A DNA stretch of 43,189 bases, taken from contig NZCQ01000002.1 in assembly GCA_002688335.1 (NCBI GenBank), positions 1-43,189 on the forward strand, given 5' to 3'. Below the pieces are notes generated by a model, which saw nothing but the letters and a program-made list of their open reading frames with translations, ran no database searches and had not been told where the DNA came from. Shown here in pieces: positions 7,180 through 42,014 of this stretch (position 1 is its first letter; each line of letters opens with the position of its first letter). This DNA is from Candidatus Pacearchaeota archaeon (GTDB lineage: Archaea > Nanobdellota > Nanobdellia > Pacearchaeales > GW2011-AR1). The position numbers were made by a program, and so were the translations under genes.

Positions 7180-7701
7180 ATGACAGATTCAAACACACAC
7201 GAAGAACAAAGCTATCTTGATGCAATTGTCTCCTTTCTCACAGCACAAGAAGTAACTCACTATGAAACAGAAATCTCTGATGGAGAGAATTTTGTAATGG
7301 GGTATGGAAACACTCCCGAAGAATCTCAAGAAAATGCAAGTGAGCAATGGGATGAATATGGAGGTTCAAATGATGATGAAGGAGATTGCTGTTATTTAGT
7401 CAGCGCATGTCTTGATGCCAAAGAATTGCCAAGAAGTTCGCCTGAAATGAAAGCCATGAAACATTTAACTAAAAGTTTCATATTACAATCTTTCCAAGGA
7501 AGAAGAGATTATATATCTTACAAAAGAAAAGCTCCGGGAATTGTCCAAGCAATAAAAGATAGAAAAGAAGCTCAAGATATATGGGATGGAATCCACAAAA
7601 AATTGGAAACAATAGCATCATCAGTTCATTCAAATAACCTTAGGGAAGGACATAGGTTATACAAGGAACTGGTTTTAGATTTAGAATCAAGATATATCTA
7701 A
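7180..7701 (+). CDS. Hypothetical protein with an acidic N-terminus and a Cys-containing CCYLVSAC motif
   Basis: ORF track. Strong AGGAGGT Shine-Dalgarno 7 nt upstream. Visibly richer in G+C than its neighbours. Confidence 0.5.
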   Translation: MTDSNTHEEQSYLDAIVSFLTAQEVTHYETEISDGENFVMGYGNTPEESQENASEQWDEYGGSNDDEGDCCYLVSACLDAKELPRSSPEMKAMKHLTKSFILQSFQGRRDYISYKRKAPGIVQAIKDRKEAQDIWDGIHKKLETIASSVHSNNLREGHRLYKELVLDLESRYI

Positions 7702-7795
7702 AGAGAATTTTGTATAAACGCGATTTCCAAAGGAAATTTGGTAAAATTCTCTATTAGAAACCGAGAAAAATAGAGTTTTTCAAAGTTTTCTAAAC
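7701..7795 (+). repeat. R1 double-hairpin repeat, copy 1
   Basis: Outer stem AGAGAATTTT/AAAATTCTCT encloses inner stem ATTTCC-AAA-GGAAAT, followed by a second hairpin module (GAAAAA..TTTTTC). It starts at the stop codon of the preceding gene. Confidence 0.7.
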
Positions 7796-8091: not shown

Positions 8092-8610
8092 ATGAAAATA
8101 TATCTTTCTGGAGATCATGCAGGATTCAAATTAAAAGAGAAAATAAAGTCTTGGCTAAGAAATGAATATGGAAAAAATTTTTACAACTCCCCTGGGTGGG
8201 CGGGTGGGTTGAGAGATAACAGTCGTAAAAATTCTTCTATAGAAATCGAAGATTTCGGACCTCTAGAATATAATGAGAAAGATGATTATCCAGACTTCGT
8301 AATTCCCATGGCCAGAGAAATTGTCAAAAATAAAAATAGTAAGGGTATAATTATCGCAGGATCAGGTCAGGGCGAATCAATAGCCACAAATAAACTAAAA
8401 GGAATCAGGGCAGGATTGTATCATGGAGGAAGCACTAAAATTGTTAAAACAGGAAGGGCACACGATAACATTAACATATTATGCCTAGGATCAAGATTCG
8501 CTAGCGAGAAAGAGGCTAAAAAAGCCATAAAGAGTTTCCTAGAAACTCCATTTAATAAAGGCAGGCACTCAAGAAGACTAAATAAACTCAAACACCTAGG
8601 AAGTAAATGA
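8092..8610 (+). CDS. rpiB: Ribose-5-phosphate isomerase B (LacA/B family) carrying an 18-aa insertion
   Basis: MKIYLSGDHAGFKLKEKIKSWL..DDYPDF..IIIAGSGQGESIATNK.KGIRAG..NILCLGSR..PFNKGRHSRR matches RpiB family motifs. Confidence 0.85.
   Translation: MKIYLSGDHAGFKLKEKIKSWLRNEYGKNFYNSPGWAGGLRDNSRKNSSIEIEDFGPLEYNEKDDYPDFVIPMAREIVKNKNSKGIIIAGSGQGESIATNKLKGIRAGLYHGGSTKIVKTGRAHDNINILCLGSRFASEKEAKKAIKSFLETPFNKGRHSRRLNKLKHLGSK
8178..8231 (+). repeat. 54-nt hairpin-ended G-quadruplex element, copy 1 (inside rpiB, in frame)
   Basis: TTTTTACAACTCCCCTGGGTGGGCGGGTGGGTTGAGAGATAACAGTCGTAAAAA. By my count 48/54 positions are identical to 18467-18520. Confidence 0.85.
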
Positions 8611-8668
8611 AAACATTTAAATATAACCATAATGATAGTTATAATAACCTAAATCAAGGTTATACAAT

Positions 8669-9175
8669 ATGGAATTATTAGATTCTCTAAAAGCAGATAA
8701 GGACTCACGAAAGATTTTTGGAAGTAAAGAATTGAAAATAATTGAAAAGCAATTAATGGGGATCAAATTAACACAATCTGAAAAAAACAGATTATCCAGA
8801 GACATAAGAAAAAAGTTAAGATTCATCAAGGAAATAAATAAATTCAATAAAGAATTTGGATTAAAAAAAGGAAAGATTGTAAGAAACATTATTGAAGATA
8901 CAATTAACATAATTAAAGAAGATCATTCATTCAGAAAGATTAAAAAAATCTTATTATTCGGATCGTACGCTACCAATGAAGCGATTTTCCGCTCAGACAT
9001 AGATATAGCAATTGAGTTTGATAAAATTGATTTAAAAGAAGCAACAAAATTCAGGATTAGAATATCCAAAATAACCTCAAATAAAGTAGATATCCAAGTT
9101 TACAATATATTACCAAAGAGATTAAAAGAATCTATAATTAAACATCATAAAATCTTATATGAAAAGAGCAAATAA
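8669..9175 (+). CDS. Minimal nucleotidyltransferase (Pol-beta/MNT-like) with an N-terminal helical extension
   Basis: The LLFGSYATNEAIFRSDIDIAIEF motif fits the GS..x..DxD signature. No HEPN partner is visible. Confidence 0.7.
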   Translation: MELLDSLKADKDSRKIFGSKELKIIEKQLMGIKLTQSEKNRLSRDIRKKLRFIKEINKFNKEFGLKKGKIVRNIIEDTINIIKEDHSFRKIKKILLFGSYATNEAIFRSDIDIAIEFDKIDLKEATKFRIRISKITSNKVDIQVYNILPKRLKESIIKHHKILYEKSK

Positions 9176-9192
9176 AACATTAACATTATAAA

Positions 9193-9840
9193 ATGAAAAA
9201 CCAAATACTGCCATCAATTATAGCAAACAATCAGACCGAACTAAACGAAAGATTCAACAAAGTAAAAAATCTAACAAATAATTTTCATGTAGACATCATG
9301 GATAATGGATTCGTTAAAAACACATTCATGAACTTTAACTTCAAACTGCCCAGAAAAATAAAGAATAAAAAAACTAACTATGAGGCACACCTAATGATGC
9401 ATGGACACAAAGCAATGCATTGGATTAAAAAAAACAAAAACAAAGTGAATCTGATAATTATCCATCACGAAGCAAATAACTTTAAACCACTCCTAGCTCA
9501 TTTAAAAAAGCAAAAAACAAAAACAGGCATAGCTCTAAAACCCTCAACATCTATCAATAAAATAAAAGAATATCTAAATGATATAGATCAAGTTCTATTG
9601 TATATAGCATCAGGACTAGGAAATTATGGGGGAAAATTTCTTCCATCAATGCTAAATAAAATAAAAAGATTAAGGAAATTAAAACCAAATTTAGACATAG
9701 AAGTTGATGGTGGAGTAAACAATAAAATAATTAAAAAACTAAAAAAAGCCGGAGCTAACAAATTTGTTATTGGAAGTTATTTGCAGAACAGCAAGGAGAT
9801 CAAAAAAGATTTTGATGGGTTGAAAGGACTTATTAAGTAA
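9193..9840 (+). CDS. rpe: Ribulose-phosphate 3-epimerase
   Basis: ILPSIIA..FHVDIMDNGFV.N near the N-terminus and EVDGGVN..AGAN.FV.GS near the C-terminus. Confidence 0.8.
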   Translation: MKNQILPSIIANNQTELNERFNKVKNLTNNFHVDIMDNGFVKNTFMNFNFKLPRKIKNKKTNYEAHLMMHGHKAMHWIKKNKNKVNLIIIHHEANNFKPLLAHLKKQKTKTGIALKPSTSINKIKEYLNDIDQVLLYIASGLGNYGGKFLPSMLNKIKRLRKLKPNLDIEVDGGVNNKIIKKLKKAGANKFVIGSYLQNSKEIKKDFDGLKGLIK

Positions 9841-10117
9841 AATTAAATCTATCATAATCAAATTTTCTATGATCTATCGCAGTAAGTTGAACTTCATTTT
9901 TATCAAGGACAATTTTAAAAATCAGCCTTAGCTTTCCAGTAATTCTTGTTGATTTATATCCATGAAGATTTCCAGAAAGCCTATCTCCCACTGAATGAGG
10001 ATTCTCTTTTAATCTTTCAATTTTCCTATCAAGAGCTTTCACAAATTCTCCATCTTTTCGATGTTTCTTAAACTGCTTAGAAAACTCCTCGGTTACGGAG
10101 ATTTCCCAATTCATCAT
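9833..10117 (-). CDS. RelE/ParE-superfamily toxin
   Basis: 94 aa and basic, with a 4-bp ATGA overlap with the upstream small acidic ORF. The core LRLIFKI..V.L.AI.HR is typical of this superfamily. Confidence 0.65.
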   Translation of the reverse strand: MMNWEISVTEEFSKQFKKHRKDGEFVKALDRKIERLKENPHSVGDRLSGNLHGYKSTRITGKLRLIFKIVLDKNEVQLTAIDHRKFDYDRFNFT

Positions 10118-10317
10118 ATATCTAGAACAGAATTAATCTTATGAACCCTTCCTTCTCTAACATCCTCTTCGCTTTTTTTAATCTGATCCAGAGTATCAGA
10201 ATTAGATAAAACAGCAATTGTCTCCATCACTTGCTTCAATTCTTCTTTTGTCACCATTGTTTCTTCTATTTTCCTCAATTGATCTACGATCTCCTCGTCT
10301 GATATTTGTGTTTCCAT
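10114..10317 (-). CDS. Putative antitoxin partner
   Basis: 67 aa, acidic, translationally coupled to the toxin. C-terminal SEEDVREGRV motif. Confidence 0.5.
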   Translation of the reverse strand: METQISDEEIVDQLRKIEETMVTKEELKQVMETIAVLSNSDTLDQIKKSEEDVREGRVHKINSVLDI

Positions 10318-10398
10318 TTACTATCCAAGAATAAGATGATTATAAGGTTTATGGTTACATTTAAAAAAACTCTTCTACTTATATGGGAAAAGGGGAAG

Positions 10399-12222
10399 AT
10401 GATTTCAAAAAGACTTCAAGAAGCGGCAAATGTTCTAAGAGCTGATGTTCTTAAAATGACAACTGCAGCGGGAAGTGGCCATCCAACCTCATGCCTATCA
10501 GCAGCAGAAATCATGGCCTGTTTATTCTTTTATGAAATGAAATACGATATCAAGAGTCCTAATAATCCAGATAATGATGAATTCGTGTTAAGCAAAGGTC
10601 ATGCAGCACCAGCCCTCTATTCAGCCCTATACCGGGCAGGCTGTATAAATCACAACCTTTTATCCCTAAGAAAGTTTACAAGCAAACTTGAAGGGCATCC
10701 GATGCCATCTTCACTAAAATGGGTCAAAGTCGCAACAGGAAGTTTAGGACAAGGACTTTCCGTAGGATTGGGCATGGCTCTGGCAGCGAGATTACAGAAA
10801 AGAGAATTCCACACATATGTATTACTAGGAGATTCTGAACTAACAGAAGGCTCTATATACGAAGCATTACAGCTAGCTAGCTATTACAAACTAAACAACC
10901 TAACAGCAATAGCAGATATAAATAAACTAGGCCAAACAGGAGAAACAATTGAAGGCCATAATATTAACAACTATAAAAAGAGATTTGAGGGTTTCGGTTG
11001 GCAAGTAATCACAATAAACGGTCATGATATAAATCAAATACTAAGAGCATTAAAAAATTCCAAGAAAACCAAAAAGCCTACATTGATCTTAGCCAAAACG
11101 CTAAAAGGAAAAGGAGTAAGCTTTATAGAAGATAAAAATGGATGGCATGGAAAAGCATTAAGCAAAGAAAAACTAGAAAAAGCATTAAAAGAAATCCCAG
11201 AAACAGATTTTCCAGAATTTAAGATAATAAAACCAAAAAAAACAAATCATAAATTTAAGATAAAATCCTTCAAGAAAAATAACTACCACAAAAATAGAGA
11301 CATTGCAACAAGAGAAGCGTACGGTAGAGCATTAGCGAATCTAGCTAAATCAGATCCCAGAATCTTGGCTGTTGATGCTGAAACGGGAAACTCAACATTC
11401 TCAAACCTAGTTAAGGAAAAAACTCCAAATCAATTCATACAAACATTTATAGCAGAACAAAATATGATTGGTGTTTCAACAGGACTATCAATTAAAGGAT
11501 TCAGAACATTCCCAAGCACGTTTGCAGCATTCCTAACAAGAGCATTTGATCAACTAAGAATGGCCTCAATTTCAAGAGTAAACTTAACAATTTGTGGAAG
11601 CCATGCAGGGGTTTCAATAGGCGAAGACGGAGCAAGCCAAATGGGACTAGAAGATATAGCCATGTTCAGAAGTCTAAGAAATAGCAATATTTTCTATCCT
11701 AGCGATGCAATATCATGTGACAGATTAACAAACACATGCTCAAGACTAAAAGGAATAAACTACATCAGAACAACAAGAGCCAAAACCCCCATAATATACA
11801 ACAACAATGAAAAATTCAAAATCGGAGAATTCAAGATACTAAAAAAATCCAACAAAGATCAAATAACCCTTATAGGATCTGGAATCACCTTACACGAATC
11901 ATTAAAAGCCCATGAAAAACTGAAAAAGAAAAACATAAACAGTGCTGTAATCGATCTTTATTGTATCAAACCATTCAACCACAAAAAACTAATAGACTTC
12001 ACAAAAAAACACGGAAACAAAATAATAATAACAGAGGACCACCATTACGAAGGAGGGATCGGAGAAATGCTAAAATCGGGTCTTATTGATTCTGGAATCC
12101 AAATTAAACATCTAGCTGTAAACAGACTTCCTCATTCAGGTACAACGGAGGAGCTACTTGGATTTGAAGAAATAGATGAATATAGCATCATAAGAAATGC
12201 TATAAAGCTAACGAGAAAATAA
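10399..12222 (+). CDS. tkt: Transketolase (full-length, fused N- and C-terminal halves)
   Basis: AAGSGHPTSCLSAAE, LSKGHAAPALY, GSLGQGLSVGLGMA, GDSELTEGS, EQNM.G...G, GEDGASQMGLEDIA. Start set at MISKRLQEAAN; the track ORF begins further upstream. Confidence 0.9.
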   Translation: MISKRLQEAANVLRADVLKMTTAAGSGHPTSCLSAAEIMACLFFYEMKYDIKSPNNPDNDEFVLSKGHAAPALYSALYRAGCINHNLLSLRKFTSKLEGHPMPSSLKWVKVATGSLGQGLSVGLGMALAARLQKREFHTYVLLGDSELTEGSIYEALQLASYYKLNNLTAIADINKLGQTGETIEGHNINNYKKRFEGFGWQVITINGHDINQILRALKNSKKTKKPTLILAKTLKGKGVSFIEDKNGWHGKALSKEKLEKALKEIPETDFPEFKIIKPKKTNHKFKIKSFKKNNYHKNRDIATREAYGRALANLAKSDPRILAVDAETGNSTFSNLVKEKTPNQFIQTFIAEQNMIGVSTGLSIKGFRTFPSTFAAFLTRAFDQLRMASISRVNLTICGSHAGVSIGEDGASQMGLEDIAMFRSLRNSNIFYPSDAISCDRLTNTCSRLKGINYIRTTRAKTPIIYNNNEKFKIGEFKILKKSNKDQITLIGSGITLHESLKAHEKLKKKNINSAVIDLYCIKPFNHKKLIDFTKKHGNKIIITEDHHYEGGIGEMLKSGLIDSGIQIKHLAVNRLPHSGTTEELLGFEEIDEYSIIRNAIKLTRK

Positions 12223-12268
12223 TGCAAACAATAAAAAGACATTTAAACAAATAAAAACTCTATTAAGT

Positions 12269-12520
12269 ATGAAAGAAGAGGTTAAAATAAAAGAAGTAAA
12301 TCCCACATTGAAGTTTTTATTATCAAACAATAACGTAGTTATAAATTTGCTTCTTCTAGGCTTTTCATTCTTACTAATAATAATGATCCCAATTATGGCC
12401 TTAAAAGATTGGTTAAAAGAAGAATTAGTTGTAGATATAATATTGATGATTATAGGTAGTTTCCTAGGAGCAGGATTACTAAAATATGGATTAAAAAAAG
12501 AGAATGGCACAGCAAAATAA
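12269..12520 (+). CDS. Small membrane protein
   Basis: ORF track; two hydrophobic helices. Confidence 0.35.
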   Translation: MKEEVKIKEVNPTLKFLLSNNNVVINLLLLGFSFLLIIMIPIMALKDWLKEELVVDIILMIIGSFLGAGLLKYGLKKENGTAK

Positions 12521-12650
12521 ATCACCAATAACAGCATTCATAGGGGCATTTGTAGGATTAATCACATTTGGTATGATTAATACGAACCTATCAATATTAG
12601 GGGCTATAGTCGGAGCGTTTATAGGTTACGCTTTAGGAAAAGAATGGTAA
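12504..12650 (+). CDS. 48-aa glycine-zipper-like membrane peptide
   Basis: My own translation: MAQQNKSPITAFIGAFVGLITFGMINTNLSILGAIVGAFIGYALGKEW. Confidence 0.3.
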   Translation: MAQQNKSPITAFIGAFVGLITFGMINTNLSILGAIVGAFIGYALGKEW

Positions 12651-12651
12651 A

Positions 12652-12822
12652 ATGACAAATTCAGATTTAATAAATAAAAATTGGGACATATTATTATTCC
12701 TAATAATAATAATAATTAGTTTTATCATTTCTTCTTTCTATAAAGATTACTTTTGGATATTTATAACACTAGTAGTCATTTTGTCATCCATAATTCTTAT
12801 AAAAAAAATGAAGGAAAAATAA
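12652..12822 (+). CDS. 56-aa membrane peptide
   Basis: My own translation: MTNSDLINKNWDILLFLIIIIISFIISSFYKDYFWIFITLVVILSSIILIKKMKEK. Confidence 0.3.
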   Translation: MTNSDLINKNWDILLFLIIIIISFIISSFYKDYFWIFITLVVILSSIILIKKMKEK

Positions 12823-12831
12823 CCCAATAAG

Positions 12832-13677
12832 ATGGTACAAATATTCTTAGACAGTGCAATATTAGAAGAAATAAAATCACTAAAAAACATAGGATTATTA
12901 GACGGAGTTACAACAAATCCCAGTTTAATCAAAAAGGCTGTAGATCAGCTAAAAAAACAAAACAAAAAAATAAGTATTGAAATTTATATAAGAAAAATTC
13001 TAGAAACCTGCAATAAAAAACCTGTCAGTCTTGAAGTAATTGGAACAAATCTCAAAGAAATGGTTGAGGAAGGAGAAACTCTCTATAAAAAATTCAAGAA
13101 ATATGGTAATGTTTACATAAAAATTCCAGTAAATCCATGCATGGAAGATAAGTGTACTTTAGGAAGTGATGGAATCAAAGCTATAAAAGAATTATCCAAA
13201 AACAAAATCCCGGTAAACTGCACATTAATCTTCACACCAGAACAAGCACTTTTAGCAGCCAAAGCAGGAGCAAAATTTGTTAGCCCATTCATGGGAAGAG
13301 AAGACGATTATATAAGAGAAATAAATAGGGTAAAATTCAAAAAAGAAGATTACTTTCCTAAAGAAGGATACAAAAAAGAGAAGAAAACACTAGAAGATAA
13401 TGGAATTATCTCAGGCATAGATTTAATAAAAAAAACAATTGAAATATTCAAGAAGAACAAAATCAGATCTAAAGTATTAGCAGCTAGCATAAGAAGCAGT
13501 AGACAGTTCAGAGAAGCTCTAAAAGCAGGAGCAGACATCGTAACCCTTCCATACAAAATCATTATCGAATCACTTAATCATCAAAAAACAATTGAAGGCA
13601 TGAAAAAATTCACAAAAGACATCGTTCCTGAATATGCGAGATTGATAAAGAAAAATGAAAACAGCAAATATAAATAA
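12832..13677 (+). CDS. tal: Transaldolase / fructose-6-phosphate aldolase family (TalC/Fsa type) with insertions
   Basis: MVQIFLDSAILEEIK..GLLDGVTTNPSLI, IKIP, VNCTLIF..QALLAAKAGA.FVSPF.GR. Confidence 0.85.
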   Translation: MVQIFLDSAILEEIKSLKNIGLLDGVTTNPSLIKKAVDQLKKQNKKISIEIYIRKILETCNKKPVSLEVIGTNLKEMVEEGETLYKKFKKYGNVYIKIPVNPCMEDKCTLGSDGIKAIKELSKNKIPVNCTLIFTPEQALLAAKAGAKFVSPFMGREDDYIREINRVKFKKEDYFPKEGYKKEKKTLEDNGIISGIDLIKKTIEIFKKNKIRSKVLAASIRSSRQFREALKAGADIVTLPYKIIIESLNHQKTIEGMKKFTKDIVPEYARLIKKNENSKYK

Positions 13678-14608
13678 AATGAAAAACTACTATGAGATGA
13701 AATCATTCACTCTGAAAGACATTCCAAATTTAGACACTTGTGTTTTAGGAGCATTAGAATTACTAAACAGAGAGAAAGTCCCCAAAATTAACATTCCCTA
13801 TAAACATCCACTTGTTGTGGGATCAGGAAATGCAGAAGCAACAGGCAAAATATTATTCCACGATAAAGACGCTATATTCGCTAACGAGAGCAATCTAAAA
13901 ACAAAGATAAAAACAAAAGGAATAGATGGGATAGTAATCATCTCCGCATCAGGAAGCAAACATGCTCCAATAATTGCTAAAAAAGCTAAGCAACATAAAA
14001 AACACATAACACTCATCACAACTAAAGATCATTCTCAAACAGAAAAATATCTAGACAAAAAACACAGCCATGATGAATTCATTTTCCCAAGACAAAGAGA
14101 ACCTTATACCTATAACACTTCCACCTACTTAGGAATGATTCTAGGAAAAACAAAAGAAAATCCAAAAGAAATTTACAATTTTATTAAAAACAAAATAGAC
14201 AAGTTAAATCTAAGTAAACTAAGGACATACAAAAGATTCTACCTAATCATCCCACCAAAGTTCAGTTTGATAAAAAGAATGTTTGAAGTTAAATTCATCG
14301 AACTATTCGGGAGAGAGATTGCAAGAGACATCGAAACAAGTGAATATATAAAACATGCAACAACCGTTATCCCAAGTAAAGAACTATTTATCAGCTTCGG
14401 AGAAAAAAACACCCATTATGGCAAAAAAGAAAACCGACTTTACATTCCATTACCAAAAAAAGCAGACTTCGGAACCATAATAGCCATAGGATATTATATA
14501 ATTGGAAAAATACAATCTCACAATCCTTATTTCAAAAAGAACATAGAAAAATATACAAAAGAAGCTAGCAAAGTCTTTAACACAAGGATAGGGCCGATAG
14601 TGGAATAA
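13655..14608 (+). CDS. SIS-domain sugar-phosphate isomerase-like protein (possibly an archaeal PGI/PMI-like enzyme)
   Basis: The segment VVGSGNAEATG..GIVIISASGSKHAPIIAKKAK..ITLITT resembles a SIS fold signature. It sits in the pentose-phosphate cluster. The start may instead be the ATG at 13679. Confidence 0.4.
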   Translation: MKTANINKMKNYYEMKSFTLKDIPNLDTCVLGALELLNREKVPKINIPYKHPLVVGSGNAEATGKILFHDKDAIFANESNLKTKIKTKGIDGIVIISASGSKHAPIIAKKAKQHKKHITLITTKDHSQTEKYLDKKHSHDEFIFPRQREPYTYNTSTYLGMILGKTKENPKEIYNFIKNKIDKLNLSKLRTYKRFYLIIPPKFSLIKRMFEVKFIELFGREIARDIETSEYIKHATTVIPSKELFISFGEKNTHYGKKENRLYIPLPKKADFGTIIAIGYYIIGKIQSHNPYFKKNIEKYTKEASKVFNTRIGPIVE

Positions 14609-14697
14609 TAATCAATGAAAATAATTAAAGGTAAGAAAGATAAATTAGAAGAAATAGGAAGTCAATTTATACTAGACGCTATAGAAAAAACTCTAAA

Positions 14698-15651
14698 TTA
14701 GAGAATGTCTAGATCATTTTCCTTGAATCTCGAATAAACTTCTTTCGCACCTTTTTCTTCACAATATCTTTTTAATCTAAGAACATAATCGTAAACAGGA
14801 TCTTTTTCACCACTAGCAGAATATCTTAGCAGATCTGATTCGTTAAATCCCAATCTTTCTATATACTCACTAAAGAATTTTTCAACTAATGCATGAACTA
14901 CGCCCTCTCCTATTTTTTTAGATTCTCTATAGATTTCATGTTCCTTAGGAATATCTCTTCCAAAAATATTTGATGCGTATAATTCCTGATTTAATCTTTG
15001 AACTAAATTCGTTCTTTCATATGGCTTGACAATACAATGGAATATTTCTACGATTGGTATAAATAATGCACCAACAACTTCATCGCAGGAGGTTAGTATC
15101 CCTTTATTTTCTCCAACAACTTCATAACCATTTCCTTCAATAAATCTCCACCCCTCTTTATTAAAATGGATTCCCTTATTCCCCTTAGAGATCTCCACAT
15201 TTTTTATTAGTTCTGACCAAAAATGATTGCCTCCGTTATAGTAATAATCCGCTCCCAATACCACATTAAATGTATATGTCACCGCCACTGGAATGAGACC
15301 TCCATCTCTTGGAGATAGGGGAGTATCTCGACCAAGTGCATCAATTCTTATTTGGTACTCTGCATCCTCCCCAACATACCTTAAAAACTCATCAAGACTA
15401 TCCTGGACCCTCTCTTGATACATTTTAATTACATTACTATCAATTTCAAGAGGAGTAAAATTAATATCCGAATAATAATTAATTGTAACTTCATCTACAG
15501 GATCTTCAACATTATTTCTAAAGTGAGTAAATAATTTTATCTCATCCTCAAAACTATGACTATTTCCTTCCCCCCTCAGAGATTCATTCCTAATTGGGTC
15601 CCTTAGCGGAGGTGTTATGTTTTCTCTATAAAACGAAGCAAATTCTAACAT
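14698..15651 (-). CDS. Hypothetical protein (orphan), antiparallel insert in the pentose-phosphate cluster
   Basis: 317-aa ORF with no motif I recognise. Visibly higher G+C than the flanking genes. Confidence 0.5.
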   Translation of the reverse strand: MLEFASFYRENITPPLRDPIRNESLRGEGNSHSFEDEIKLFTHFRNNVEDPVDEVTINYYSDINFTPLEIDSNVIKMYQERVQDSLDEFLRYVGEDAEYQIRIDALGRDTPLSPRDGGLIPVAVTYTFNVVLGADYYYNGGNHFWSELIKNVEISKGNKGIHFNKEGWRFIEGNGYEVVGENKGILTSCDEVVGALFIPIVEIFHCIVKPYERTNLVQRLNQELYASNIFGRDIPKEHEIYRESKKIGEGVVHALVEKFFSEYIERLGFNESDLLRYSASGEKDPVYDYVLRLKRYCEEKGAKEVYSRFKENDLDIL

Positions 15652-15801
15652 TTTGGATCCTCCAGAGGTTTATTTCTCTATAAAATGCACATAGAATGAG
15701 TTTATAAAACTTACTACATGTATTAATTTTATAATAGTAACATATATTCACATTAAACTTATAAGAACAAACATCTTTACCATAAAAACAGGTTCAAGAA
15801 A

Positions 15802-16689
15802 ATGAAACTAGGATTCATAGGACTGGGTAGAATGGGTAGTAACATGGTTCTAAACCTCCTAGACCATAAACACAAACCAGTTGTCTATAATAGAAATTCT
15901 AAAATCACTAAAAAATTTGAGAAAAAAACACCAACCTCCTACTCTTACCAAGAAATGATTTCCAAACTTCCAAAAAGAAAGATAATCTGGTTAATGATCA
16001 CATCAAAGGCAGTAGATTCCATAATAAAAGACCTAATCCCTTTTCTAAAAAAAGGAGATATCCTAATCGACGGAGGAAACTCTTACTTTAAAGATTCCAT
16101 AAGAAGACATAATCAACTAAGAAAACACAAAATATATTTTCTTGATGTTGGAACTTCTGGAGGCATTGAAGGAGCAAGGAATGGTGCATGCATGATGATT
16201 GGAGGAGAAAAAAAGATATTAGAACTAACAGAAAAATTATTCAAAGATATGTGTGTAAAAGATGGTTATGGATATATGGGAGAATCGGGAGCAGGACATT
16301 ACGTTAAAATGGTTCATAATGGAATAGAGTATGGGATGATGTCAGCAATAAGTGAAGGAATTGAAGCAATTAACAAAAAAAAGAACAAATTCAAAACAAA
16401 TCTAAATGAGGTAACCAAAGTCTATAGTAATGGAAGCATTATTGAAGGCAGGTTAATGAGCTGGACAAGAAAAGGAATGAAAAAACCATATTTCAAAAAC
16501 ATTAGTGGAAAAGTTCCAAAAGGAGAAACCGAGAGAGAAATGGAAGAGCTCACGAAGATAGCTAACATGCCAGTCCTAAAGCAAGCTATCAAAGAAAGAA
16601 AGAAGACAAGAAAAAAACCAAGTGAATTTGGGAAAATAATAAGTGTTATGAGAGATGAGTTTGGTGGACATAAGTTTAGTAAGAATTAA
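15802..16689 (+). CDS. gnd: 6-phosphogluconate dehydrogenase, short (YqeC/Gnd-like) form
   Basis: MKLGFIGLGRMGSNMVLNL (NAD(P) Rossmann motif), GGNS, GTSGG, GAGHYVKMVHNGIEYG. Confidence 0.85.
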   Translation: MKLGFIGLGRMGSNMVLNLLDHKHKPVVYNRNSKITKKFEKKTPTSYSYQEMISKLPKRKIIWLMITSKAVDSIIKDLIPFLKKGDILIDGGNSYFKDSIRRHNQLRKHKIYFLDVGTSGGIEGARNGACMMIGGEKKILELTEKLFKDMCVKDGYGYMGESGAGHYVKMVHNGIEYGMMSAISEGIEAINKKKNKFKTNLNEVTKVYSNGSIIEGRLMSWTRKGMKKPYFKNISGKVPKGETEREMEELTKIANMPVLKQAIKERKKTRKKPSEFGKIISVMRDEFGGHKFSKN

Positions 16690-16710
16690 GAAATGTAAAT
16701 AGTATAGCCA

Positions 16711-17049
16711 TTAAGATATCCTCCTATCTGGATTTCTCTTGATAGCATCTTTATATTCATCATAAGTCATCCAAAAACTCTCACTACACTCTAAACAATG
16801 AAAATCGACCTCTGAACTATTTTTATCTAATAACCACTCAACCTCCCTTGATTCACAATCTGGGCAAATTAATTTTTCACCTAACTCCATCCAATCAACA
16901 GAATGCCCAACCCTTGTAGGATCTATATCTCCGCTCTTAAATCCTTTAATCAGATTTTCAATTTCTTCAGATACATCATCCGAAATTTCTTCTAATTCTT
17001 TAACAAATTCGTCGGAAAATTCTACCTTCCATTTCTTTTTTTCTTTCAT
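16711..17049 (-). CDS. Hypothetical zinc-ribbon protein
   Basis: CPDC..(18)..CLEC pattern with an acidic N-terminal half. Confidence 0.45.
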   Translation of the reverse strand: MKEKKKWKVEFSDEFVKELEEISDDVSEEIENLIKGFKSGDIDPTRVGHSVDWMELGEKLICPDCESREVEWLLDKNSSEVDFHCLECSESFWMTYDEYKDAIKRNPDRRIS

Positions 17050-17062
17050 TTCTTAAATTCAA

Positions 17063-17235
17063 AATCATCTGAGTAATCAGGAGACCACACCTTAAAAGGT
17101 GTGAGATTACTCTAGATCCTAACCAATGAAAATCAAGTAGATTTTCGTGGCCCTCAAAATCGTAGATTTTGTCGGAAACAAGGGCCTGTAACAAACCACA
17201 CCCTCTATGTGGTGGCCCATTGTTTTTTTGATGTT
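17063..17235 (-). repeat. R2 two-hairpin element, copy A (candidate ncRNA or cis-regulatory leader)
   Basis: Its reverse complement aligns with 36929-37098. The two share AACATCAAAAAAACAATGG, ACCACA..GGTGTGGTTTGTTACAG, TAGGATCTA.AGTAATC and GATTACT.AGAT, with compensatory stem changes. Confidence 0.7.
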
Positions 17236-17236
17236 C

Positions 17237-17485
17237 TTATTGATCACTCTTATGATACAAATCTAAAACATATACTACGCTCTTATCCCTTAAGTAAGCA
17301 TAAGACAACCTGAATGGTTTTGCATATAATTCTCTTGTTTCTTTCCTATTATGTTGCATTGGTTTCCCAATTTCAGGATATTCAGATATTTTCTTAATTT
17401 GGTTTATTATTTTTTCCCTTAACAGATCATTCTTGATCTTGGAGAATGTTTTAGCAAAATTTTTATCAAAACGCACCTCTACCAT
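17237..17485 (-). CDS. RelE/StbE-family toxin
   Basis: 82 aa, basic. It overlaps the upstream acidic ORF by 7 nt. FRLSYAYLRDKSVVYVLDLYHKS is a typical C-terminal core. Confidence 0.7.
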   Translation of the reverse strand: MVEVRFDKNFAKTFSKIKNDLLREKIINQIKKISEYPEIGKPMQHNRKETRELYAKPFRLSYAYLRDKSVVYVLDLYHKSDQ

Positions 17486-17661
17486 TTATTCATTTCTTCT
17501 AAATTTTCAGAATCCATACTAAGGTACTCTCCAGAATCTATCCTACTCTGTGCTTCTTCAGTCCTTCTTGCAAACTCTAAATCTTCCTTGAACCTCTCAA
17601 ATTCCACCCTTAAATTCTGCAATTCTAGATTCATTTTCTCAAGAGAAGGTCCTTGTTCCAT
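17479..17661 (-). CDS. Putative antitoxin
   Basis: 60 aa, acidic and helical, coupled to the toxin. Confidence 0.5.
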   Translation of the reverse strand: MEQGPSLEKMNLELQNLRVEFERFKEDLEFARRTEEAQSRIDSGEYLSMDSENLEEMNKW

Positions 17662-17708
17662 AACAAAACATGCCCTAATAATTTATATAGTTTTGCATAA
17701 TCTAAGAT

Positions 17709-18455
17709 TCACTTCAATCCCTTACAAAAATCATAAGCATCATCCTTCGGCTTATATCCCACAAGCTTCTTAGTAAAAGACAAATCCATATACTTCTTCT
17801 TATTATCCGAACTTCCACTCAATATTCCATATCTAACACTTTTCGGAGCAACAATGCACTTATGAATTAGCTGAGTCATATCTCTTTGACTTATAACATA
17901 ATCATAATTATCTCTATTCAAACAAACTTTTTCTCTTAAATCATCAGAAACATAAGCGCCAATTCTTATAGCCAAACAAGACAGGTTATATTTTTTTGAA
18001 AAAACATAACAAAGAGATTCTCCAAAAACCTTAGAAGCTCCGTAAAAGCCAGAAGGCTTAGGTGCATGATCTTCTCTCACTCTTTTCCCTAAAGGATATC
18101 CCCTTATCGCATGAACACTGCTTGCATAAATAACTCTTTCACATCCAGCCAATCTTGCAGCCTCAAAAACATTGTATGCACCAATTATATTGGGAGCTAA
18201 AACCTCATCAAAACTTGCACTAGGATCAGATTCCGCAGCCAAATTAACAACAACAGAAATGCCCTTCATAGCTTTCTTCAACCTAGCAACATTAGAATAA
18301 TCAACAACCCTGACCTCATATCCTTCAATCTTTCTTTTCTTTCTAGAACCAATTACAACACCATAATAACTCTTATAATTTTTCTCATAATCCTCCAAAA
18401 TCCCGGGACCAATCCTTCCAGTAACTCCTAAAAACAAAACCTTTCTTTTAACCAT
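17709..18455 (-). CDS. NAD-dependent epimerase/dehydratase (SDR) family protein
   Basis: MVKRKVLFLGVTGRIGPG (Rossmann motif GxxGxxG) and YGASK (YxxxK). Start set at the ATG at 18455, which has GAGGT upstream. The longer track ORF reads through the G4 repeat. Confidence 0.8.
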   Translation of the reverse strand: MVKRKVLFLGVTGRIGPGILEDYEKNYKSYYGVVIGSRKKRKIEGYEVRVVDYSNVARLKKAMKGISVVVNLAAESDPSASFDEVLAPNIIGAYNVFEAARLAGCERVIYASSVHAIRGYPLGKRVREDHAPKPSGFYGASKVFGESLCYVFSKKYNLSCLAIRIGAYVSDDLREKVCLNRDNYDYVISQRDMTQLIHKCIVAPKSVRYGILSGSSDNKKKYMDLSFTKKLVGYKPKDDAYDFCKGLK

Positions 18456-18466
18456 CTTACCTCTTA

Positions 18467-18520
18467 TTTTTACAACTCTCCTGGGCGGGTGGGCGGGTTG
18501 AGAGATTACAGTTGTAAAAA
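18467..18520 (+). repeat. 54-nt hairpin-ended G-quadruplex element, copy 2 (intergenic, 11 nt upstream of the epimerase start on the opposite strand)
   Basis: TTTTTACAACTCTCCTGGGCGGGTGGGCGGGTTGAGAGATTACAGTTGTAAAAA, with perfect 11-nt terminal inverted repeats. Confidence 0.85.
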
Positions 18521-18724
18521 TTACACACATTACAAATAAAGAATAATATTTAAATGTAATGTGAACCAATTTACCTTCAAGCTAACCTTTTCAAAAAAGA
18601 TATTACTCCATCGTTTTTTTGATTTATCAATTACCAAAAACTTTAATGAAGCAACTAAGCGGAGCTAGTTGCGAAACATAAAACAAATCAACAGCTTTAA
18701 AAAATCAAATCAACTTTCAATAGC

Positions 18725-18880
18725 ATGCAAAAAGAAATAAGATGCAAGGATTGCAATAAAACATTCGAGGTGAATCCCAACGCTAGATATCCTAGGAAAT
18801 ATTGCGATACTTGCAGTAAGGAAAGGAAAGAGGCCTACGCCAAGATCGGTGAAATAAAGTTTGAAGATTGTGAGGATTGA
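18725..18880 (+). CDS. 51-aa zinc-ribbon peptide
   Basis: My own translation: MQKEIRCKDCNKTFEVNPNARYPRKYCDTCSKERKEAYAKIGEIKFEDCED. Confidence 0.35.
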   Translation: MQKEIRCKDCNKTFEVNPNARYPRKYCDTCSKERKEAYAKIGEIKFEDCED

Positions 18881-18897
18881 ATGCGCCATGGGAGAAT
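18879..18897 (-). repeat. 19-bp perfect direct copy of the tRNA-Gly 3' end (att-like)
   Basis: GAATGCGCCATGGGAGAAT is identical to 19735-19753. Confidence 0.8.
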
Positions 18898-19669: not shown

Positions 19670-19737
19670 CAGGGTAATTTACTACATAATTATCTTTTAA
19701 ACCTTTCTAAAATTCGATTCTCCCCGTGAGCATCGAA

Positions 19738-19808
19738 TGCGCCATGGGAGAATCGAACTCCCGTCCTGTGATTGGCAACCACATGTTCTACCACTAAACT
19801 AATGGCGC
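19738..19808 (-). tRNA. tRNA-Gly (GCC)
   Basis: Folded by hand: GCGCCAT-TA-GTTT/GAAC-TGTGG TTGCCAA TCACA-GGGAG TTCGATT CTCCC-ATGGCGC-A. No CCA is encoded. Confidence 0.9.
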
Positions 19809-21801: not shown

Positions 21802-21833
21802 AAGAATCGAACTTCCGACTTCTTGGTGTAAAC
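21802..21833 (-). repeat. Partial, degenerate copy of tRNA-Val (T-arm to anticodon loop)
   Basis: AAGAATCGAACTTCCGA (17/17) and GGTGTAAAC match 22553-22584. No acceptor or D-arm is present. Confidence 0.7.
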
Positions 21834-22542: not shown

Positions 22543-22613
22543 TGGGCGTAGGAAGAATCGAACTTCCGAATCCTCGGTGTAAACGAGGTGGTTTGCCACT
22601 AGCCTATACGCCC
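22543..22613 (-). tRNA. tRNA-Val (TAC)
   Basis: Folded by hand: GGGCGTA..CCTCG TTTACAC CGAGG..GGAAG TTCGATT CTTCC TACGCCC A. The D-stem has one mismatch. Confidence 0.85.
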
Positions 22614-30025: not shown

Positions 30026-30123
30026 GAAATATCTTTATCCACAATAATTTATAAGCATATATATAGAAAAAAACATACTTAGAAGGGAGTTTAAAATTAC
30101 ATTATTTCAAGGGCCTCTACAAA

Positions 30124-30627
30124 TTAAAAGTCATGCAAACCTTCCAAGGTCAAGAATGATTTCGCTTGCTCTATAAACTCGCTAACTTCTTCAAAAACCC
30201 TATCCTCATATCCCTTAATTCTCTCCTTTATGATATATTTGTCATATATTTCCCTCAAACGTTTAAAAAACATATTTTCCCATTCACCATTAACATCCTT
30301 CATCAGAGAAGCCGAGAAAGTTACCTCTAAAGTACCAGAATCCATGGAAACTTCCTGCCCATTTTTCTTAACCTGAACCTTCTTCATACCTAAGATTATC
30401 CAATCAATCTTTATCTCTATCCCAAAGTAATTAGATAAATCGCTAGTAGCCACCCAGCCTATTTCAACTTCCTTAGAATCTCCCTTAGTTTTCTCCAGAT
30501 ATCTAGCCTCATGTAAATCATAACCAAAATCAACAATAGTCACATATAAAAACTCATAAAAATCTTTAAAGTTAAAAATACCAGATTGTTTTATCTTTCC
30601 TTTATAAACACTATCTTTTTCAGCCAT
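30124..30627 (-). CDS. Orphan protein, tandem paralog B
   Basis: MAEKDSVYKGKIKQSGIFNFKDFYEFLY.. is clearly paralogous to the upstream gene. Confidence 0.55.
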   Translation of the reverse strand: MAEKDSVYKGKIKQSGIFNFKDFYEFLYVTIVDFGYDLHEARYLEKTKGDSKEVEIGWVATSDLSNYFGIEIKIDWIILGMKKVQVKKNGQEVSMDSGTLEVTFSASLMKDVNGEWENMFFKRLREIYDKYIIKERIKGYEDRVFEEVSEFIEQAKSFLTLEGLHDF

Positions 30628-30653
30628 ATTATAATTCACAAACAATAAAATAA

Positions 30654-31154
30654 TCAACGTTGACCTTCAACTGCTAAGAATGATTTTGCCTGTGCGATCG
30701 CTTCTTTAATCTCTTCGAAAAGCTTAATTCCATAATCATCTATCCTCGACTTAATAATATATCTATCATAGATTCCCCTCAAAAACTTCCAAAACGGAGC
30801 ATTTTCCCACCGATTCTCCCAATCACGCACAAGAACAGAATCAAATTTTATCTCTAAAGTTCCAGAATCCATACTAACCTCTTCCCCTTCTTTCTTAACC
30901 TTAACTTTCTTCATCCCCAAAATAAACCAATGAGCAGAGATCTCAAAACTAAAATAATCCGAAACCTCCTTAATAGCCGTCCACTTAATCTCAACATCTT
31001 TAGAATCTCCCTTAATCTTCTCAACATATTTCTTCTCAATAATATAATAATTCTCATCAACAAGATAATCATATAAAAACTCATAAAAATCTTTAAAATT
31101 AAAAATACCAGACTGTCTAATCTTTCCCTTGTATATCCTATCTCTCTCAGCCAT
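30654..31154 (-). CDS. Orphan protein, tandem paralog A
   Basis: MAERDRIYKGKIRQSGIFNFKDFYEFLY..ILGMKKVKVKK.G.EVSMDSGTLE.. with GAGGT upstream of the ATG at 31154. Confidence 0.55.
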   Translation of the reverse strand: MAERDRIYKGKIRQSGIFNFKDFYEFLYDYLVDENYYIIEKKYVEKIKGDSKDVEIKWTAIKEVSDYFSFEISAHWFILGMKKVKVKKEGEEVSMDSGTLEIKFDSVLVRDWENRWENAPFWKFLRGIYDRYIIKSRIDDYGIKLFEEIKEAIAQAKSFLAVEGQR

Positions 31155-31168
31155 AACAACTACCTCTC

Positions 31169-31267
31169 TAAGAACCTTATATATTTGACATTTGCGAAGC
31201 AAATCGCATATAAAGTTCTTCTTAGAGAACGAGAAAAACGGAGTTTTTCAAAGTTCTCTTCATAAAC
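31169..31267 (+). repeat. R1 double-hairpin repeat, copy 2
   Basis: Outer stem AGAACCTTATAT/ATATAAAGTTCT, inner stem ATTTGC-GAA-GCAAAT, then AGAGAAC-[GAAAAAC GGA GTTTTTC]-AAAGTTCTCT. Confidence 0.7.
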
Positions 31268-36083: not shown

Positions 36084-36344
36084 CAAGAATCAGGAGAAAG
36101 GGATTGCCCGAACCTTGAGTTCGGCTACATATAAAAATGTAGGTTCCTCAAGCATCCTCCATCAAATTCCCGCTACAATAATAGTTATGCGCACATATAT
36201 ATAAATGTTTGTGCAGTTCAAAACTTGTAGAACCAGGGGACATATGTCTCCTGGTTGAATCGGTTATTTATACATAAATTTTAGGCCTCTTCGCTAATCC
36301 CATTGATAATGTATAAATCCATATTAGTATTTTGCTACCCATAT

Positions 36345-36515
36345 TAAAGAGACACTCACTTTTCCACAGATACTAAAGAGAACTTTGCATAATTGACATT
36401 TCCGAAGGAAATCACAGCAAAGTTCTCCAAACATTAAGTAAGATGAATTACAGGAGCTAACAATATTTCTAGCGAGGAAATTTGACGAAGTCAATTTCGA
36501 AAGCTGATTTATTAA
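36345..36515 (+). repeat. R1-related structured locus, copy 3 (candidate sRNA)
   Basis: AGAGAACTTTGC..ATTTCC GAA GGAAAT..GCAAAGTTCTC, plus a downstream hairpin GAAATTTGAC GAA GTCAATTTC. Flanks are homologous to 38662-38920. Confidence 0.55.
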
Positions 36516-36928: not shown

Positions 36929-37098
36929 AACATCAAAAAAACAATGGCGCACCACACCTTAAAATCTCAATAACTTTTAGTTCTTGATGATCATACAGAT
37001 CCTTGAGGGGTGTGGTTTGTTACAGCGCCTTGTTTTTAGGATCTACAGTAATCACCACACTCTGAAGAGTGTGGTTCTCTCAGATTACTGAGATAATT
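36929..37098 (+). repeat. R2 two-hairpin element, copy B
   Basis: See copy A. The lower stem is GGCGC/GCGCC here versus GGGCC/GGCCC in copy A. Confidence 0.7.
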
Positions 37099-38661: not shown

Positions 38662-38900
38662 TTAAGACTCACACATTCGAAAACAGATCATATCTCTCTA
38701 AAGAGAACTTTGCATAATTGACATTTCCGAAGACTTCAATTTCTTTGAAGTTGAATGTGTCAGGAATTTTAATTCCTGAGGAAATCACAGCAAAGTTCTC
38801 TCTTAGAGGAGTTTGAAATTGCATTATTTCAAAGTTCTCTAAAGGTAATTGTAGACATTTCAAAACGTTAGCGAAGGAACTTGGCAAAGCCAGTTCCGAG
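38662..38900 (+). repeat. R1-related structured locus, copy 4, with a 47-nt two-hairpin expansion in the inner loop (candidate sRNA)
   Basis: AGAGAACTTTGC..ATTTCC GAAG[ACTTCAA TTTC TTGAAGT..CAGGAATT TT AATTCCTG]A GGAAAT..GCAAAGTTCTCT, then a second module, then GGAACTTGGC AAA GCCAGTTCC, ending in a T5 run. Confidence 0.6.
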
Positions 38901-40821: not shown

Positions 40822-41045
40822 GTTACCATCTTGGCACATAATTATTTTAATAACGCTAGAATTACTCACTCATGCCTTAGATTATCTATTAGATATCAGA
40901 AATGATATAAATTTTGGGTTAACATCAGTTTCCTAAAATTATGTGTAAATGAACTATTTTAAAGTAGGACATATGTCTCTAGGGTCTACAACTTTTCCAT
41001 AATCCACAACATTTATAACTCTTCAATTCTCAACTTACTTAGAAA

Positions 41046-41756: not shown

Positions 41757-42014
41757 ATGAGATTAAAAAAAAGACAAAAAATCTTAATTGCAATAGTCCT
41801 AATCATAATCCTCGCCCTATTTCTCTTCTCAATACTAAACATAGCAACATTCCATAACCTAGATGACTTAAAAGAAGCTAGGAAAGCTTGCCTAAGCTCA
41901 AACATAGGAAATAAATGTTCTTTTGAACTCAAAGAAGAAAAAATAGAAGGAATTTGTAAAACAATTAAATTTGGCAAGGTAATCTGTAAACCGGCTCCAT
42001 CCCAAATTAATTGA
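41757..42014 (+). CDS. Small membrane-anchored Cys-containing protein whose last codons and stop lie inside the IS left end
   Basis: ORF track. The IS inverted repeat starts at 41993. Confidence 0.4.
   Translation: MRLKKRQKILIAIVLIIILALFLFSILNIATFHNLDDLKEARKACLSSNIGNKCSFELKEEKIEGICKTIKFGKVICKPAPSQIN

Follow-up and report, generated by a model that had tools for sequence, protein, structure and literature searches.

A short palindrome recurs three times within 53 kb of the genome of a marine Candidatus Pacearchaeota archaeon. The three sites are unrelated: one lies inside the gene for ribose-5-phosphate isomerase B (rpiB), one in the 5' leader of an epimerase gene, and one in an intergenic palindrome. 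We consider it probable that these copies represent a short, structure-defined family of dispersed palindromic repeats (MITE/REP-like) carried by one marine Pacearchaeota population, with the rpiB copy being tolerated as a loop of the protein. We would class the element as a new family within a kind already known in bacteria and archaea, the short dispersed palindromic repeats. According to the record of the RpiB protein the source is a Pacearchaeota member of the Tara Oceans metagenomes. The window, by which we mean the whole stretch of 43,189 nt that was analyzed, has an average G+C content of approximately 33%. The features discussed are listed in Table 1.

Table 1. Features of the repeat element and of the genes in which, or next to which, it is found
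Feature	Position	Strand	Remarks
rpiB (ribose-5-phosphate isomerase B), 172 aa	8092..8610	+	Pfam PF02502 (LacAB_rpiB), E = 9e-39
Copy 1	8178..8231	+	In frame inside rpiB; encodes residues 30-47, FYNSPGWAGGLRDNSRKN; covariance model R1, 86.9 bits
Copy 1 left arm, TTTTTACAACT	8178..8188	+	Partner is 8221-8231
Copy 1 G core, GGGTGGGCGGGTGGG	8194..8208	+	Canonical G3N1 G-quadruplex motif on the rpiB sense strand
Copy 1 right arm, AGTCGTAAAAA	8221..8231	+	One mismatch versus the left arm
NAD-dependent epimerase/dehydratase gene, 248 aa	17709..18455	-	Pfam PF01370
Copy 2	18467..18520	+	Intergenic; perfect 11-12 bp arms; covariance model R1, 87.7 bits
Copy 2 G core, GGGCGGGTGGGCGGG	18483..18497	+	
Neighbouring hairpin, CACATTACA ... 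TGTAATGTG	18526..18563		Encloses TATA-like TTTAAATA (-, 18554-18547); directly adjoins copy 2
Copy 3	18362..18419 of contig L039 (window-equivalent ~50421-50478)	+	About 7 kb beyond the window end; covariance model R1, 33.3 bits

Copies 1 and 2 are direct repeats on the same strand, 10,289 bp apart, and are identical at 48 of 54 positions. Five of their six differences (positions 13, 20, 24, 28, 41 and 47) are C/T transitions. The full common stretch measures 57 nt (8177-8233 and 18466-18522) and is the second-strongest repeat in a self-blast of the window (blastn E = 1e-14). The resemblance is not one of chance. The arms of these two copies, TTTTTACAACT and AGTTGTAAAAA, are 11 nt long, perfect in copy 2 and with a single A/C mismatch in copy 1; pairing reaches 12 bp when the flanking A...T is included, and the inverted ends overall comprise 11-13 nt. 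Between arms of about 12 nt each lies a centre of about 32 nt which is G-rich on one strand (GGGYGGGYGGGYGGGTTG). The element as a whole is 54-58 bp long, has terminal inverted repeats in all three copies and possesses no ORF of its own. The original prediction had described a hairpin-ended 54-nt repeat in two places on the same strand, with inverted ends that are perfect only in the second; coordinates, identity and arms were all reproduced when read directly.

Copy 1 is unchanged in a second assembly from another submission (ERZ5402580, 99.98% identity over 14.6 kb) and therefore is not an assembly artefact. No presence/absence polymorphism of the copies was seen between assemblies.

The third copy is located on a contig of the same organism (L039) that was reached through the IS transposase of the window and continues for 10 kb beyond its right end. 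Nhmmer with copies 1 and 2 as the query finds it with E = 0.0015. A covariance model with a 12-bp stem (R1), built from copies 1 and 2 only, recovers it in 64 kb of sequence (E = 1.4e-5) and marks four of its arm pairs as compensatory. The original prediction had proposed a search for further copies, and this one, although divergent, is such a copy. Copy 3 reads CAATTTTATTCT-TACCCAA-GGGTGGATGGGCGGG-TTGCAAGACCAG-AGAATAAAATTG. Its 12-nt arms (CAATTTTATTCT and AGAATAAAATTG) are perfectly complementary to each other and differ in sequence from those of copies 1 and 2. The spacing from core to 3' arm is the same 12 nt, and the core, GGGTGGATGGGCGGG, departs from the copy 2 core in a single loop base and in a G-to-A change, the second G tract being GGA instead of GGG. 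This copy is identical in three independent assemblies, is found about 80 nt upstream of a minus-strand PKD-domain gene, and is nested within a longer palindrome, CTTTTACACATA...TATGTGTAAAAG (DNA fold z = -5.5). A relaxed G-core pattern matched four sites in all of the Pacearchaeota DNA fetched. Three of these are the copies described here, each with arms that pair over at least 12 bp at the same spacing, an arrangement found around approximately 0.1% of random sites.

The rpiB reading frame is intact, and in an alignment of this RpiB with 17 homologues all of the invariant catalytic-motif residues of the family are kept. The lengths of the other 102 matches agree with those of the 17 that were aligned; together the 119 other RpiB homologues listed measure 142-167 aa, mostly about 150, versus 172 aa here. 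As had been stated from the frame, copy 1 adds 18 codons without a stop, and its excision leaves ...NEYGKN|SSIEIEDFG. Extra residues between helix 1 and strand 2 occur in this RpiB alone among the 18 sequences. The Thermotoga maritima protein (1O1X) aligns to residues 2-23 and 49-167 and is also without the insert, residues 24-48 being represented by two residues in this solved structure. These comparisons support the view that the rpiB copy is a lineage-specific in-frame insertion, absent from 17 of 17 aligned homologues and from solved RpiB structures, a point that the original prediction had proposed to test by aligning orthologues. The site which it had given, between helix 1 and strand 2, agrees with both the homologues and 1O1X. 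The size does not: the gap versus the homologues is 23-24 residues while the element supplies 18, and 5-6 extra residues (YGKN..SS) are therefore not accounted for by the element. Since the nearest RpiB homologue among the matches listed is only 65% identical, and no empty site is at hand, the insertion is read from distant homologues.

AlphaFold2, run on that alignment, returned a confident RpiB fold (mean pLDDT 84, with 111 residues at 90 or above). Residues 29-47 are the only internal segment with a pLDDT below 50, and no secondary structure is predicted for them. The best reading of this model is that copy 1 is tolerated as a disordered surface loop of RpiB. Based upon the topology of the Rossmann-like fold, this helix-to-strand loop would face away from the active site. 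Three of the six frames of the element are open, and an in-frame survivor in a permissive loop is thus an unremarkable outcome of selection against insertions that disrupt.

Upstream of the epimerase gene (- strand), copy 2 sits between a TATA-like box and the Shine-Dalgarno sequence. The start codon of this gene is the ATG at 18455-18453, with the Shine-Dalgarno GAGGT at 18463-18459 (- strand). The end of copy 2 is 11 nt upstream of the ATG, and the TATA-like TTTAAATA, on the - strand, is some 25-30 nt upstream of the far edge of copy 2. Epimerase orthologues in relatives have 247 aa as against 248 aa here. The ENA gene call for this locus (17709-18530) runs through copy 2 and is an annotation artefact. 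The C-rich strand of copy 2 is the epimerase sense strand. Copy 2 would form most of the epimerase 5' leader, the C-rich strand appearing in the mRNA and the G-rich strand serving as template. The region of the hairpin which directly adjoins copy 2 has a DNA fold z of -3.3 to -3.8, and it is uncertain whether this hairpin belongs to the element.

The only IS in the window (41993-43186) is of the DDE_Tnp_1 type with 18-nt terminal inverted repeats (GGCTCCATCCCAAAT...). Within 53 kb, that is, the window and its 10-kb extension, we found neither an IS or transposase with ends matching the element nor a gene for a tyrosine, Y1/HUH or RAYT-type transposase. TTA flanks copy 2, and no matching target-site duplication was found at copies 1 and 3; the T5/A5 ends blur the boundaries. 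Because the arms differ yet remain complementary and no consistent target duplication is seen, we infer that it is the folded hairpin which is recognized, as in REP/RAYT or IS200/IS605-type systems. The genome also holds at least one other small intergenic repeat family bearing terminal inverted repeats which, along with the IS, indicates that it is colonized by small mobile DNA. That the present element is itself mobile we likewise infer.

A survey of 8,220 archaeal genomes revealed MITEs of 50-800 bp in approximately 20%, with DPANN among the densest, and about 11% of the archaeal copies are intragenic (PMC11602168). With archaeal MITEs thus catalogued, the suggestion in the original prediction that no archaeal counterpart is known was too strong. 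Like MITEs, including those of DPANN, the element is small and non-coding, has terminal inverted repeats and is mostly intergenic with a minority of copies inside genes; its size is at the small end of the 50-800 bp described (PMC11602168). With three copies in 53 kb it would be dispersed as they are. Unlike them, it displays no consistent target-site duplication and has no parent IS with matching ends in the 53 kb. Furthermore, its arm sequence varies between copies while complementarity is kept, which suggests recognition of shape.

REP/BIME elements (RAYT, IS200/IS605-like) are likewise single, short, imperfect palindromes defined by structure and lacking target duplications. A strand bias would be expected for these, and here three of three copies are on one strand. 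REPs, at least those treated in one account (PMC3733652), possess a conserved GTAG or CGTC head, and they are extragenic, neither of which is true here. The element ends (TTTTTACAACT / AGTYGTAAAAA and CAATTTTATTCT / AGAATAAAATTG) have neither head, and within the 53 kb we came across no RAYT-type gene.

Rickettsia palindromic elements (RPEs) are also palindromic, occur in frame in unrelated housekeeping genes as well as between genes, and once translated give additional peptide segments that the fold of the host protein accommodates (PMC10969869), to which the rpiB copy, one of three, would correspond here. They differ in being bacterial, approximately 100-150 bp long and present in tens of copies, with a conserved peptide and no G-quadruplex core, whereas the present element is archaeal, 54-58 bp long, in a gene in one of three known copies, and without sequence similarity to them. 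In-frame, fold-compatible insertion does appear to hold for the rpiB copy, and the original likening to RPEs is a fair analogy, although an analogy only. Among bacteria in-frame MITE fusions have been called "not unusual", the Rickettsia RPEs being the extreme case (PMC10969869).

The AT-rich mitochondria of yeast contain mobile GC-rich hairpins of 32-42 nt (PMC4478555). These GC clusters (e.g. GC42) are G+C-rich hairpin repeats of 30-60 nt scattered, as is the element described here, in a very AT-rich genome, and in the GC42-type clusters too substitutions are mostly at unpaired positions (PMC4478555). By analogy they are the closest match in size and genomic setting, but they are organellar and eukaryotic with GC-rich stems, whereas our element has AT-rich stems, is G-rich in the loop only, and has no sequence similarity to them. 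Related hairpin elements of fungal mitochondria occur within coding genes. Our literature search found no description of an archaeal repeat element with a G-quadruplex (G4) core.

The motif GGGNGGGNGGGNGGG occurs exactly twice in the window when both strands are searched, with 0.00 expected (100 shuffles). When loops of 1-4 bases are allowed between four tracts of G3+, the same two sites and no others are recovered, in agreement with the original observation that the window has no other 4xG3 run, and 181 kb of related archaeal DNA gave no match. At a threshold of 1.2, G4Hunter also marks numerous G- or C-skewed stretches elsewhere in the window and is not discriminating here; the claim of uniqueness rests on the explicit four-tract patterns. 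Among parallel G4s, the most stable are those formed by motifs of the (G3N1)4 type, with single-base loops. This is the class to which the cores of copies 1 and 2 belong, while copy 3 is without the motif and, one of its G tracts being broken, has no canonical G4.

ViennaRNA with its G-quadruplex term predicts an arm-enclosed G4 for copy 1 (-42.6 kcal/mol) and copy 2 (-50.4 kcal/mol), as against -15.5 and -14.4 kcal/mol, respectively, without that term. For copy 3 it predicts no G4, despite the perfect stem. A C-rich run directly 5' of the core is able to pair with it, and in duplex DNA the complementary strand is a competitor for the motif; folding here is a prediction of the energy model. 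The modelling points to a strong G4-forming potential in two of the three copies.

A recount of the differences between copies 1 and 2 agrees with the original one: three of six are at loop bases (T,C,T versus C,T,C), and all twelve guanines are kept. With six random differences, all three loop positions would seldom be hit (P = 8e-4), whereas leaving every G untouched would be no surprise (P = 0.20). The interpretation placed on this pattern, conservation of structure rather than of sequence, does not stand as it was worded: it drew on two copies only, copy 3 has GGA, and T,C,T versus C,T,C could arise by slippage, from one or two register shifts in a GGGT/GGGC array. The G4 core is a striking sequence property of which the significance is unproven, and selection for a G4 is not established.

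One might nevertheless suppose that the hairpin-capped G4 is a cis-acting element of transcription, translation or replication which the host has selected and kept at each site for its structure. The loop bases and retained guanines would fit such a role, as would the lack of G3N1 motifs elsewhere in the window or in some 200 kb of relatives, the strongly predicted stem-enclosed G4, and the placement of the G-rich strand on the same strand in all three copies. [quoted passage not shown] We regard this explanation as unlikely. Copy 3 has a perfect stem around a broken G tract; the possible slippage would account for the loop changes in one or two events; and the relatives show no conservation. 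There is also no common functional position, the G-rich strand being the sense strand of a CDS in one case and the template strand, 11 and about 80 nt from start codons, in the others. The orientation of the three copies has a P of 0.25, and the GC skew of the + strand is negative throughout. We are equally doubtful that the identity of the element lies in a helix-capped G4 as such, with the G4, or an i-motif on the opposite strand, being recognized by the mobilizing factor or retained by the host as a roadblock or regulator. If true, it would place a translated G4 on the sense strand of the gene for an essential pentose-phosphate enzyme in a DPANN archaeon of reduced genome.

A little less likely again is a single local duplication or gene conversion of about 57 nt between rpiB and the epimerase leader, with the third copy a coincidence. 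There are just two close copies, 10.3 kb apart on the same strand, and neither a target duplication nor a transposase was found. Copy 3, however, was significant with a model blind to it, and in it the rare G core and a 12-bp stem are spaced as in the other copies. In addition, the copied unit is exactly one self-contained palindrome, which would be unexpected from segmental copying, and copies 1 and 2 have diverged by 11%.

It is highly improbable that the 18 residues are never made, whether through excision of the rpiB copy from the RNA as a bulge-helix-bulge intron or through a byp-like bypass in translation. Bypassed hairpin "byp" elements do exist in yeast mitochondria, copy 1 is a compact hairpin within a CDS, and an A_AAA_AAT run is found just upstream of it, but copy 2 sits outside any gene and Rfam gives no match. 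Such removal is not needed, the element being in frame and stop-free. An archaeal bulge-helix-bulge intron was rejected since the arms form a continuous helix of 12-13 bp with one mismatch, without two 3-nt bulges spaced 4 bp. We would attach equally little weight to copies 1 and 2 being attL/attR-type sites which bracket a 10.3-kb integrated or invertible segment. They are direct repeats, and the enclosed pentose-phosphate genes are rearranged with respect to relatives and interspersed with toxin-antitoxin pairs; yet these housekeeping genes are linked to rpiB in relatives too, no integrase is present, a third copy lies elsewhere, and one "att" would be in frame in the middle of an intact rpiB.

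Several known classes of repeat were also considered and rejected. As an integron attC site, ACAAC / GTTGT in copies 1 and 2 is only partly like the RYYYAAC / GTTRRRY core sites and is absent from copy 3, and there is neither a cassette array nor an integrase. The differences between copies are C/T transitions and are not A-specific, unlike those of a DGR template/variable repeat. An archaeal origin-recognition box is contradicted by the copy inside a CDS and by the absence of orc1/cdc6 nearby, an intrinsic terminator by the lack of a T-run after the hairpin, and derivation from the IS of the window by the unrelated ends. A CRISPR repeat was likewise rejected.

Beyond this organism the element was sought in several collections. 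The exact pattern GGGNGGGNGGGNGGGTTGAGAG gave 16 matches among 185,579 species-representative genomes, all of them bacterial, none archaeal, and from GC-rich taxa where named; this pattern is too strict for cores such as that of copy 3, and the source genome is outside that collection. JGI metagenomes yielded only five poly-G sequencing artefacts with ACAACT..G4..GTAAAAA. Three scans of viral contigs (core, terminal arms and relaxed core) returned only chance matches, these being a non-G-rich hairpin and GC-rich phages, and blastn against phage and plasmid collections revealed no copy. At the protein level, a single query made by joining the translated frames of the element (the three that are open plus four with stops) returned only the same RpiB from 5.8 billion proteins, and a 30-residue RpiB segment had no match among 1.84 billion representative proteins. 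Neither the G-core motif nor a covariance-model match was present in contigs from four further lineages of Pacearchaeota, some from the same samples, which came to about 340 kb, roughly 200 kb of it non-redundant. Rfam at gathering thresholds identified only four tRNAs in the window and left the element unmatched; at relaxed thresholds the best score for the three copies was at most 22 bits, versus gathering thresholds of 36-90. Copy 3 was found within the organism, and the other genomes and metagenomes searched were negative.

Based upon the dispersed-repeat explanation that we favour, the family would have spread by copy-and-insert events into A/T-rich sites, with a trans-acting factor recognizing the shape of the hairpin and no fixed terminal sequence, and copies would persist at harmless places. 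In rpiB the element would be transcribed and then translated straight through, this copy presumably having survived because it adds 18 codons in an open frame to a loop situated across the Rossmann-like sheet from the active site. At the epimerase gene, copy 2 would have lengthened the mRNA 5' leader from about 14 to about 68 nt. The cores of copies 1 and 2 would be expected, in rpiB mRNA or as single-stranded DNA, to form a very stable three-tetrad parallel G-quadruplex with the arm helix as a cap. The predicted G4 would then be a property of the element, and one that may slow polymerases or ribosomes.

If this reading holds, the rpiB copy would be a clear archaeal case of a palindromic repeat read through as protein in a housekeeping enzyme, a phenomenon known mainly from Rickettsia, and very small DPANN genomes too would tolerate such insertions in core metabolism. 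The arms, variable yet complementary, hint at a mobilization mechanism which reads the shape of DNA. The element misleads gene callers: in one public annotation the epimerase ORF was extended through copy 2. Interest would rise sharply if the G tracts were preserved across many copies with varying arms, and the G3N1 core, in a genome otherwise without such motifs, may provide a test case for the effects of G4s on archaeal transcription and translation.

On either side of copy 1, the hairpin-ended 54-nt repeat that lies in frame inside rpiB, the gene sequence itself is partly complementary (8165–8177 and 8232–8241; TATGGAA / TTCTATA), and pairing of these flanks lengthens the hairpin by approximately 7 bp. 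Because of these complementary flanks, and of the 5–6 extra RpiB residues which the 18 codons of the repeat leave unexplained, the original insertion in rpiB could have been longer than 54 nt.

A further family of dispersed repeats, intergenic, approximately 100 nt in length and separate from the 54-nt repeat, occurs in the window, with one copy situated some 300 nt upstream of rpiB. Its ends resemble terminal inverted repeats (AGAGAACTTTG...CAAAGTTCTCT), and it looks like another MITE-type element.

Repeated segments and insertion sequence of the window
Feature	Coordinates	Remarks
~100-nt repeat family	7698–7791, 31165–31259, 36373–36427, 38698–38841; partial 30078–30119	intergenic
tRNA-Val gene, partial duplicate	21802–21833 vs 22553–22584	91%
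tRNA-Gly gene edge, partial duplicate	18870–18897 vs 19726–19753	93%
Short repeated segments, inverted	17063–17235 vs 36929–37098; 36200–36285 vs 40932–41017	74–93% identical
Tandem paralogous genes (two)	30124–31202	177 and 182 aa
Insertion sequence	41993–43186	DDE_Tnp_1 transposase gene 42060–43019

The partial duplicates of the tRNA-Val and tRNA-Gly genes may be integration scars; those of the tRNA-Gly edge bracket a ParE-type toxin-antitoxin pair. The two tandem paralogues share 69% DNA identity across approximately 500 nt, and one of them gives a weak, sub-threshold match to the YTH domain. The insertion sequence is bounded by 18-nt terminal inverted repeats (41993–42010 and 43169–43186), and a transposase identical to its own is carried by 19 contigs from many Tara samples, in some of which it is adjoined by an IS91-type Y2 transposase. 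Approximately 3 kb past the right end of the window, on a contig of the same organism (L039, 13382–15373), a GTPase gene is split by an intein which possesses a LAGLIDADG homing-endonuclease domain.

In relatives, the genes for epimerase, 6PGD, GPI, rpiB and rpe stand together as one compact pentose-phosphate operon (contig L031, 7872–11082). In the window, the pentose-phosphate genes are scattered across 10 kb (8092–18455), some of them inverted, and between them lie a nucleotidyltransferase as well as toxin-antitoxin pairs of the ParE type. The public ENA gene prediction for the epimerase (17709–18530) lengthens its ORF by 25 codons upstream, across copy 2 of the 54-nt repeat. Small repeats of this kind lead to inflated ORFs in the annotation of AT-rich MAGs.
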